From NCBI GenBank assembly GCA_041649025.1, contig JBAZNY010000002.1:70694-134693 (forward strand): a DNA stretch of 64,000 bases, read 5' to 3'. The stretch is from Bdellovibrionales bacterium. GTDB lineage: Bacteria; Pseudomonadota; Alphaproteobacteria; UBA9219. Both the position numbers and the translations under genes were made by a program. Within the stretch, counting starts at the first letter, position 1, and every line of letters begins with the position of its first letter. Positions 61,487 to 63,848 of this stretch are shown piece after piece. The notes beneath the pieces were generated by a model, which did no database searches, was not told the origin of the DNA, and worked only from the letters and a program-made list of their open reading frames with translations.

Positions 61487-61641
61487 GTTTTTTGATCTGC
61501 TTCGCAATCAGGTGAAGGACTTCCTTGACGCGCGTATGGGCGACGGCAAAGAGGGCGTGGACGGGTTTTTTCGTCACTTTCTTGAGCGCGGCGACTTTCT
61601 TTTTAATTTCGGCGGCGTCTAAGGCACTGCATTTGTTGAAG
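61487..61641 (-). pseudogene. displaced duplicate of the obg 3' end (last roughly 50 codons)
   Basis: About 155 bp aligns by eye with 62851-63005 at roughly 85-90 percent identity (gttttttgatctgcttcgcaatcaggtgaag...ggcggcgtctaaggc). Confidence 0.8.
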
Positions 61642-61821
61642 TTAGCTTTTACTGCAAAGCCATTTTTAAAGCGCCCTTTTTATCCACAGCTTATTTCAGA
61701 CCTAATTTTATTTCTCGCGTTGACAAAAAATAGCAACAATGCAATCGAAAGGCGTTTGAATTTATTGATGCGGATTCATTTTTCGAAATGAAACGTTCCT
61801 TATCACTCCAGATCGAGGGAA

Positions 61822-62511
61822 ATGACAATGAAGAAATTATTACTCGCTGTTCTTGCCGTTCTGGCGCTGACGGCTCCCGCACAAGCGGCAACGGTAGGCA
61901 TCGCGTCAGTCGGCGCGCTTGGCACGACCGATACTTATGATTGGGGCCAATTGGGAGACGCTTTCCAAGAGCTTTCAAGCCCACAGAACGTCACATCGAA
62001 CGGCGGGGCAACGGCTGTTGTCAGTTCGGATGGGGCTCTCGCACGGTTTGATCAAGGCATAGAGTGGAGCGGAAATTTTCCGAACGGCGAAAAGCTACTT
62101 TACAGCAGCCCTTACGGCTTTGCTTTCTCGCTTACGAATCCCGTTCAAGGCATTGGTATGCAGATTCAGCCTAATTACTTCGGTTCGTTTGTCGCCGAGA
62201 TTACGGCTTATGATTCAAACGATACGGTTCTCGGAACCTTTATGGAACCCGGTTCTTCCACCTACAATGAAATTGGCGACGGTATTTTTCTCGGTGTTTT
62301 GAGCGATCTGATAAACATCTCGAAAATTGGACTCGTTGTGTACGACCCTGCCGCCTTTCAAGAGGATGGCTCTATAGAACCCGGTTATCTGTTAGATTTT
62401 GCCGTCGGCACTGTTTATACCACCGTGCCCGCCGTGCCCCTTCCGGCTGCCCTGCCCCTGTTTGCGGGCGGATTGCTGGGCTTGGGCTTGTTCAAGCGCA
62501 GGAAGGCGTAA
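61822..62511 (+). CDS. secreted protein with a VPLPA-CTERM (PEP-CTERM-like) sorting signal
   Basis: Signal peptide MKKLLLAVLAVLALTAPAQA. The C-terminus VPAVPLPAALPLFAGGLLGLGLFKRRKA has the motif, a TM helix and a basic tail. Confidence 0.8.
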   Translation: MTMKKLLLAVLAVLALTAPAQAATVGIASVGALGTTDTYDWGQLGDAFQELSSPQNVTSNGGATAVVSSDGALARFDQGIEWSGNFPNGEKLLYSSPYGFAFSLTNPVQGIGMQIQPNYFGSFVAEITAYDSNDTVLGTFMEPGSSTYNEIGDGIFLGVLSDLINISKIGLVVYDPAAFQEDGSIEPGYLLDFAVGTVYTTVPAVPLPAALPLFAGGLLGLGLFKRRKA

Positions 62512-62541
62512 AAAAGCCCGTTTAGGCTTTCTGAAGAAATT

Positions 62542-62574
62542 CTCCCCGCACGGAAACGAGCGGGGAGTTTTTTT
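62542..62574 (+). terminator. rho-independent terminator
   Basis: ctccccg-cacggaaacga-gcggggag followed by ttttttt, 30 bp after the stop of the VPLPA-CTERM gene. Confidence 0.8.
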
Positions 62575-62638
62575 GTCTTTTTGGCGCGGGTCGATGCGGA
62601 CATTATCGCGGCGGCGGAGAGAGATAAAAAAAACAAAT

Positions 62639-62825
62639 TGGATTCCGGATAAATTCGCATTTTTGCAAGAGCAAAAAAGCGAATTTTCCGGAATGACGAA
62701 GGAGGAGTGGAGGCGAATTATTTCTGTTTGCAAAAGAAACGACTCTTGCCGCGCGGACGCGCGGCGCTGGATTCCCGCTTTCGCGGGAATGACGATAGCG
62801 GGGAGCGCGAACGTCGGAATGACGA
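62639..62825. repeat. second cluster of ggattcc...ggaatgacgaa-family palindromic units
   Basis: ggattccggataaattcgcatttttgcaagagcaaaaaagcgaattttccggaatgacgaa and cttgccgcgcggacgcgcggcgctggattcccgctttcgcgggaatgacga. Confidence 0.85.
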
Positions 62826-62843
62826 GACTTTACGACCCGTTAA

Positions 62844-63848
62844 TCAACTTGGTTTTTTGATTTGCTTCGCAATCAGGTGAAGAACTTCCTTCACGCCCGT
62901 ATGGGCGACGGCGGAGATGACGTGGACGGGTTTTTTCGTCACCTTTTTCAGCGCGGCGACTTTCTTTTTAATCTCGGCGGCGTCTAAAGCGTCGCATTTG
63001 TTGAGGGCAACGATTTCGGCTTTCCGCGAGAGCCCTGCTCCGTAGGCCTTGAGTTCTTTGCGGATAGTTTTGTAATTTGCGACCACGTTTTCTTCCGTGG
63101 CGTCGATCAGGTGCAACAAAACGCGGCAACGCTCGACGTGCCCCAGAAAGCGGTCGCCTAATCCATGCCCATCATGCGCGCCTTCGATAAGGCCGGGAAT
63201 GTCGGCCAGAACGAATGAAACGCTTTGGCGTTTGTCGCCGAGGCTTACGACGCCGAGGTTCGGCGACAATGTCGTGAATGGATAGTCTGCGATTTTCGGC
63301 TTCGCCGCCGTGCAGGCGGCAAGGAACGTCGATTTGCCCGCGTTGGGCATACCGATAAGTCCCGCATCCGCGATGAGTTTCAAACGCAGCCAAACCTCGC
63401 GCTCTTCGCCCGGATAGCCGGGGGTATGGAAACGTGGGGCTTGGTTGGTCGATGTTTTGTAGTGCGCGTTGCCGAAGCCGCCGTCGCCGCCCTTCATGAA
63501 CAGGATGCGCTGGCCCTCGGCGCTGAGATCGGCCAAAACCGTTTCCTTATCCGCGTCAAGAATTTCCGTGCCGACCGGAACTTTGAGAACCAAATCTTTT
63601 CCGCCCAAACCCGAGCGAAGACGCCCTGCTCCGCCGCGCCCGTTGCTGGCCGCATGATGCTGTTGATAGCGATAGTCGATGAGCGTGTTGAGGTTTCCTG
63701 CGGCTTCGAAATAGACGTCGCCGCCCTTGCCGCCGTTGCCGCCGTCGGGTCCTCCGAATTCGATGAATTTCTCGCGATGAAACGCGACGCAGCCCGGGCC
63801 GCCTTTGCCGCTTGCTATGTATATCTTTGCGAGGTCGAGGAATTTCAT
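62844..63848 (-). CDS. obg: GTPase Obg/CgtA
   Basis: [60 protein letters not shown] and NKCD. Confidence 0.95.

Follow-up and report, generated by a model that had tools for sequence, protein, structure and literature searches.

Introduction

The closest described counterparts of the locus that we analyse here are the arrays of displaced modules formed by the orphan C-terminal modules of Rhs and contact-dependent inhibition (CDI) systems and by the type VI secretion (T6SS) effector-immunity genes of Vibrio cholerae, for which the proposed process is homology-facilitated illegitimate recombination (PMC5361080). In these arrays a conserved gene serves as the anchor, an incoming 3' part arrives together with its cargo, the old 3' part is kept along with the old downstream genes, no recombinase is present, and the process recurs within a clade. 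Our locus, which appears to share all of these features, is the 3' end of obg, the gene of the essential GTPase ObgE/CgtA, in a 64 kb stretch of contig JBAZNY010000002.1 (this whole stretch is what we call the window). The last part of obg is present there twice, in copies that we call A and B, and between the copies lies a gene for a protein with a VPLPA-CTERM sorting signal. The likeness has its limits. Displacement arrays carry polymorphic toxin domains, whereas here the anchor is a housekeeping GTPase and both 3' ends encode the same function; moreover, the cargo lies on the opposite strand and is functionally unlinked to the anchor, and only one displaced tail per locus is visible.

Genomic islands and prophages that integrate at the 3' ends of tRNA, tmRNA and protein genes provide a second comparison, since they likewise leave an intact target, a direct repeat on the far side and an empty site in relatives. 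They differ from our locus in that here the integrase is absent, the insert measures only 1.4 kb and the boundary of the repeat is not the same in a second case; such islands also possess a short identical core within a longer homology, whereas our repeat runs over its full length at 90% identity. Finally, Campbell-type integration of circular DNA by a single crossover also directly duplicates a shared segment around the insert. The two copies should then have the same end points of homology on either side; our data agree with this without being diagnostic, but a circular intermediate of 1.4 kb is required, for which there is no evidence here.

Results

Our alignment (MAFFT together with a repeat search) pairs positions 61487-61639, within copy A, with the whole of copy B (Table 1) as a gap-free direct repeat of 153 nt at 89.5-90% identity, the two copies lying in the same orientation at an offset of 1365 nt. 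An earlier note on this DNA had compared 61487-61641 with 62851-63005 by eye, had estimated 85-90% identity, and had taken the second segment for the last roughly 50 codons of obg and the first for its degraded copy in the same orientation; the pairwise alignment that it proposed as a check upholds each of these points, with an identity far beyond chance. The repeat is thus real, and the pair is the longest repeat of the window if short periodic repeats within one open reading frame (ORF) are left aside. At one edge, 61640/63005, the extended alignment loses similarity abruptly and the flanks beyond are unrelated. The other edge falls 7-9 nt short of the stop codon. Mismatches occupy 7 of the final 9 nt but 17 of the 153 in the core (binomial P = 6e-6), so that the copies show no relation to each other over the final two codons and the stop, yet both terminate at the same codon.

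Copy B is the functional end of an intact obg and retains the motifs NKCD (G4) and ISA (G5) and a conserved Gly. On the minus strand of copy A the obg frame is open across 52 codons and closes with a TAG at the same codon as the TGA of obg. Copy A is nevertheless untranslatable, since it has no start codon and its frame is blocked by a stop 8 codons upstream, and it belongs to no long ORF, just as the earlier note had remarked. In annotation copy A should be marked as a pseudogene fragment of obg rather than be called as a gene. One might imagine that the old tail is retained as a 3' untranslated region or terminator of the convergent neighbour, orf94; folding revealed no convincing orf94 terminator within copy A (z = +1.1), and hence lends this idea no support.

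How the locus looks in other members of the clade was read from relatives obtained by protein search and exact-sequence look-ups of contigs. In L171 and L172 (Obg 90% identical) the obg stop is followed by 37 nt, the rne leader and rne, so that obg and rne are 277 nt apart, versus 2.6 kb in the window; this locus is an empty site, in the closest relative that has downstream sequence. L174-176 (Obg 85%) are syntenic with the window over 20 kb and have a single obg tail and an obg-rne distance of 790 nt, in which one 114-aa ORF on the opposite strand ends 14 nt past the obg stop. L179 (Obg 84%) is likewise syntenic with a single obg tail, rne following obg after 505 nt. None of these relatives, all of which lack the VPLPA-CTERM gene, carries both copies; each has just one obg end. 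This is the comparison of the obg-rne interval that the earlier note had suggested, and it comes out in favour of an insertion. Obg scans of species-representative genomes and of metagenomes of the Joint Genome Institute (JGI), tried as further empty-site tests, were set aside: they gave matches of 75-82% with no downstream synteny, rne, the VPLPA-CTERM gene, orf94 and orf123 all being absent downstream of obg.

Two further arrangements show that the region beyond obg has changed more than once. In L173 (Obg 90%), obg is followed after 13 nt by a 122-aa ORF on the opposite strand and then by a second fragment of an obg tail at 1906-2007. This fragment of 30 codons has kept its frame, ends at the codon where the full obg also stops, and has a score of 85, shuffles reaching 34 at most; over 11 central codons, 4 silent changes and a single conservative replacement separate it from its own obg. 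Its start, at about codon 305, compares with about codon 281 in the window, and with this other breakpoint and another cargo the duplication is an independent event. In L177 and L178 (Obg 86%), on the other hand, a convergent VPLPA-CTERM gene (L177 3287-3745, L178 3273-3677) lies 91 nt past the obg stop, behind a shared hairpin terminator. L177 stems from the same sample as the window and L178 from JGI sample 3300029288, and both contigs end inside this gene, the passenger domain of which is different from ours, so that the likeness to the window gene is confined to the sorting signal. With obg followed by a convergent VPLPA-CTERM gene, the two contigs display a donor-type arrangement. Screening about 165 other obg loci for a tail duplication gave only weak matches that are probably due to chance; the strong cases are those of the window lineage and L173.

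Which of the two copies is the original? In both L173 and L176 the real end of obg is followed, 13-14 nt beyond its stop, by the stop of a small ORF. It is copy A that has this junction in the window, with 13 nt between its stop and that of orf94, and not copy B; because of this match copy A stands in the ancestral context. We polarised the 17 core differences against four outgroups. Each of the 7 replacement differences is derived in A, among them NKCD->NKCS in G4, ISA->LFA in G5 and the change of a conserved Gly to Arg. Of the 10 silent differences, 5-6, which are most of those that can be polarised, have the outgroup state in A and the derived one in B. The pN/pS between the copies is 0.21, and the silent excess over a simulated in-situ duplication has P = 0.007-0.10, depending on the transition bias assumed. 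The terminal codons point the same way as the junction: copy B ends in CCA AGT TGA, unlike the relatives, and copy A in CTG GCG TAG, resembling the CCG GCC TAG of L173.

The ancestral junction, the replacements derived in A and the relative-like terminal codons lead us to regard copy A as the probable displaced resident tail, which would have decayed after losing its function, copy B having come with the cargo. The earlier note's picture, in which a replacement tail and a displaced original flank an inserted cassette, is supported by the ancestral junction at A, by the decay of A at conserved GTPase residues and by the derived silent changes in B. These silent changes are suggestive of a copy B that has been under purifying selection for longer than a copy made in situ should have been, and we infer that B may come from a foreign, related lineage. 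The pair of obg ends in L173, with its mostly silent differences, bears the same mark.

As for the extent of the insert, the earlier note had placed it at 61642-62850. That a small cassette was inserted stands, whereas in register the inserted segment measures 1365 nt, one obg tail being part of it. The note's alternative, 60684-62850, holds loosely, inasmuch as all of the obg-rne spacer varies within the clade, but the repeat does not bracket orf123 and orf94. The VPLPA-CTERM gene is the only credible ORF in the insert, and the gene, a terminator of its own and palindromes are found between the copies as that note had reported. The encoded protein just reaches the VPLPA-CTERM model TIGR03370 (25.4 bits against a cut-off of 25.35) and stays below the threshold of the Pfam PEP-CTERM model (15.5 against 20.7); its C-terminal motif, transmembrane helix and basic cluster fit the VPLPA-CTERM/PEP-CTERM family model, and its N-terminus, MKKLLLAVLAVLALTAPAQA-A, resembles a Sec signal when read by eye. 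Only 3 homologues were found, distant ones (37-41% identity) that are tandem paralogues in an exopolysaccharide (EPS)/PEP-CTERM gene cluster of another organism. An AlphaFold model (pLDDT 64) shows the passenger as a beta-sandwich with moderate confidence; its best matches in the PDB are weak, namely DUF4465/BtuJ at a TM score of 0.45 and folds resembling carbohydrate-binding modules. The cargo is probably a secreted surface protein sorted by an exosortase. A literature search on VPLPA-CTERM gave one incidental mention.

Table 1. Features at the obg-rne locus, in window coordinates
Feature	Position	Strand	Remarks
obg (GTPase ObgE/CgtA)	62844..63848	-	334 aa, intact; NCBIfam NF008956, 458 bits; Pfam GTP1_OBG and MMR_HSR1
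Copy B, functional obg 3' end	62852..63004	-	codons 282-332; would have arrived with the insert
REP/BIME-like palindromic units	62626..62826	+	cluster between cargo terminator and obg stop; each unit ends in GGAATGACGA
Intrinsic terminator of cargo gene	~62542..62575	+	CTCCCCGC..GCGGGGAG; strong hairpin with 8-bp GC stem and T7, predicted by folding
Cargo gene, putatively secreted VPLPA-CTERM protein	61828..62511	+	227 aa (229 aa from 61822); PEP-CTERM-type sorting signal; predicted beta-sandwich passenger domain
Putative illegitimate (non-homologous) junction	61640..61641		region upstream of cargo gene // resident obg codon ~281; sudden loss of similarity
Copy A, pseudogene fragment	61479..61640	-	putative displaced original obg 3' end; 52 codons and TAG at 61479-61481
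orf94	61181..61465	+	small hydrophobic ORF convergent with copy A; resident downstream context
orf123	60684..61055	+	small hydrophobic ORF; in L176 its positional homologue is the 114-aa ORF lying between obg and rne
Conserved rne leader	60263..60548	-	blastn 81-83% to L171, L172 and L174-176; similarity ends at 60548
rne (RNase E)	57617..60262	-	ancestral downstream neighbour of obg in the clade; order obg-rne kept in L171, L174-176 and L179

Discussion

We propose that the locus records a single exchange of cargo anchored in obg, one end having entered by homology and the other by an illegitimate join, and we hold this reading to be somewhat better than an even bet. The ancestor would have had the order rplU-rpmA-obg, with one or more small ORFs on the opposite strand 13 nt past the obg stop, followed by rne. 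The incoming DNA, from a closely related lineage with a convergent VPLPA-CTERM gene after obg, would have recombined by homology inside obg, and its far end, upstream of the cargo promoter, would have been joined illegitimately to the resident obg at about codon 281, thereby duplicating the tail. What results is an intact obg whose last ~53 codons (copy B) would come from the insert, followed by the cluster of palindromes, the terminator and the cargo gene; beyond the cargo the useless resident tail (copy A) would be left to decay, still attached to its old neighbours. The two junctions have the character expected of such one-sided, homology-facilitated illegitimate recombination: one is homologous and runs on into the intact obg, and the other, at 61640/61641, is non-homologous. 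The displaced tail, moreover, is still joined to the ancestral downstream genes, as seen from the 13-nt spacing to orf94 and from the homology of orf123 to the L176 ORF. No dedicated recombinase would be required, and only those events that restore the essential obg would survive. A duplicated tail would then mark the surviving events, because obg is essential and its 3' end must be restored, and the same process would have swapped the cargo downstream of obg more than once in the clade.

An intact target, a cargo and a displaced 3' fragment in direct orientation are also the classic architecture of an island made by an integrase, and the earlier note had introduced the locus in terms of elements that integrate into the 3' end of a gene and bring a replacement end. 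On that account the island targeted the 3' end of obg, the copies are attL and attR, attP carried the replacement end, and the integrase and most of the cargo were deleted later. The empty sites in relatives agree with it, the L173 duplication could make obg a preferred attachment site in the clade, and probable repeats of a tRNA-Ser 3' end at 15409, 31739 and 31935 indicate that site-specific islands may exist here. The replacement-end architecture indeed carries over from the note's framing; the integrating element does not, since the Pfam-annotated gene table lists neither an integrase nor a transposase for the insert and the 10 kb to each side of it, which agrees with the note's own observation that a recombinase is absent, and since the start of the repeat in L173 differs from that in the window. 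Both cases, besides, are tiny (cargo of 1.2 kb and 0.5 kb) and without integrase; an integrase-bearing island with such repeats is found at none of more than 180 obg loci, screened for self-repeats only; and a text search of one paper library on obg with attB and integrase yielded no report of obg as such a site, its sole match concerning ObgE in lipopolysaccharide synthesis. With no recombinase, two tiny inserts and breakpoints that differ between the two cases, recombination anchored in obg seems more likely to us than a dedicated integrase, and we consider an eroded island fairly unlikely.

A different account would have the last ~53 codons of obg duplicated in tandem or copied locally, the VPLPA-CTERM gene and the palindromes being inserted later and the downstream copy decaying. 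The two copies are indeed closest to each other, at 90%, no other lineage coming above 80%, and they have the species-specific AKQIKK and DAAEIKKK in common; the silent excess, too, is non-significant under strong transition bias (P = 0.10 at kappa 8), and clusters of such palindromes are mobile in this genome. This account, however, needs two events in place of one and is less parsimonious. Nor does uniform decay predict the concentration of 7 differences in the last 9 nt, a duplication in situ does not lead one to expect that copy B carries so many derived silent changes, copy B is followed by no trace of the post-stop spacer of copy A, and the presence of a VPLPA-CTERM gene at the same position in a relative is left unexplained. 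On this balance we judge duplication in situ to be unlikely. The window comes from an assembly of short metagenomic reads (its contig name has the k141 prefix), and contigs in other assemblies break in the cluster of palindromes, so that one might suspect a chimera of two strains joined via the obg tail. Shared k-mers, however, cannot make a junction like that at 61640/61641, which joins unrelated sequences. Two independent assemblies from other samples, moreover, hold the VPLPA-CTERM gene, copy A, orf94 and rne contiguously, L164 (JGI) being 99.97% identical to window positions 56856-62805 and L165 (Logan) 100% to 59924-62669, and one independent assembly reaches to within 39 nt of the obg stop. 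We have therefore rejected the chimera as extremely unlikely.

Several points weigh against the exchange anchored in obg. Among the genomes found there is neither a donor nor an insert-free member of the same species, the nearest Obg being only 90% identical. L177 was considered as the donor and discarded, its VPLPA-CTERM gene sharing only the sorting signal with that of the window. In composition the insert does not stand out (GC 0.47-0.56 versus 0.50-0.60 in the flanks), which says nothing about a foreign origin. The argument for a foreign copy B, made on 17 differences, is weak, with P as high as 0.1 under strong transition bias, and an integrase could have been lost by deletion.

If the exchange anchored in obg is correct, the locus is a well-resolved case in which a single accessory gene was added beside an essential gene without the machinery of a mobile element, and the decaying duplicated tail records both the direction of the event and its breakpoint. 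It is a clear instance of an event type that is already known, and no new mechanism. The L173 duplication and the VPLPA-CTERM gene of L177 suggest a recurrent hotspot of cargo exchange downstream of obg in this lineage. A bolder idea is that the obg 3' end serves as a dedicated docking site for mini-cassettes without a recombinase in this uncultured clade; we find this quite improbable, and equally so that such mini-cassettes each consist of one surface or membrane gene on the opposite strand (VPLPA-CTERM or small hydrophobic ORFs) and a replacement obg tail. Were it true, the docking site would amount to an integron-like exchange hotspot with an essential gene as its anchor.

Palindromic repeats

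The palindromes between the cargo terminator and obg, two hairpins of which fold with z = -7.3 and -2.8, had been listed in the earlier note among the contents of the insert; as something special to the insert they do not hold up, since matching units with the same ending occur at two further sites of the window, 54457-54692 and 1974-2026. The sequence GGAATGACG occurs 4 times, against 0.76 expected, and contigs from other samples break within the cluster. These palindromes are dispersed repeats of this genome and not specific to the cassette. They resemble repetitive extragenic palindromic (REP) sequences and bacterial interspersed mosaic elements (BIMEs) in being dispersed, modular, imperfect intergenic hairpins that share the conserved terminal sequence GGAATGACGA; so far as is visible, they occur alongside the duplication without having brought it about. 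The family ends in GGAATGAC(G/A)A and has related units in relatives (L182 at ~6000-6040, L173 at 209-243), one relative having a REP-like unit directly after its obg stop. A second dispersed palindromic family, at 12116-12247 and 54949-55071, is rich in CCCCTCCC/GGGGAGGG and has 52-nt arms that are 85% complementary.

Neighbouring genes and other features of the window

Past copy A follow orf94, orf123, the conserved rne leader and rne. The frame of orf94 extends back to an ATG at 61071 and is broken by a TGA at 61140-61142; orf94 may be a decaying paralogue of orf123, which itself shows weak homology to the L176 ORF (E = 2e-4, pairwise BLASTP). Neither orf94 nor orf123 has a family match in profile searches of NCBIfam and Pfam. 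The far edge of the variable obg-rne spacer is at 60548, where similarity to the relatives ends. A search for a third, older relic of an obg tail covered the insert and the intervals orf94-orf123 and orf123-rne; nothing in them rose above shuffled controls. A faint 22-nt likeness to the part of obg that codes for AHxGVKE is seen in the conserved rne leader (L176 ~11570-11591, window ~60470-60490); it is marginal, with an equal score in 10 of 300 shuffles, and possibly due to chance.

Just downstream of rne, at 56704-57480, lies a pair of a TacA-type antitoxin and a GNAT acetyltransferase toxin, and beyond the end of the window, upstream of rplU, a Gp49/helix-turn-helix pair resembling HigB/HigA. 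An ORF at 4933-6252 on the minus strand contains about 10 copies of a repeat with a periodicity of 15 nt, the spacing expected for a pentapeptide-repeat protein. The 3' end (GTTCGAATCCCTCCGTCTCCGCCA) of the tRNA-Ser(GCT) at 15339-15432 recurs at 31739-31762 (92%) and at 31935-31958 (79%), which suggests a possible genomic island of about 16.3 kb integrated at this tRNA gene. Among the ORFs tested there is no tyrosine integrase, and the ORF beside the tRNA gene, at 15558-16028 on the minus strand, is merely a fragment of an rve_3 transposase core. Finally, the label 'Bdellovibrionales bacterium' that NCBI gives to the source metagenome-assembled genome (MAG) looks doubtful: Obg, synteny and the nearest relatives all lead to MAGs of uncultured Alphaproteobacteria.

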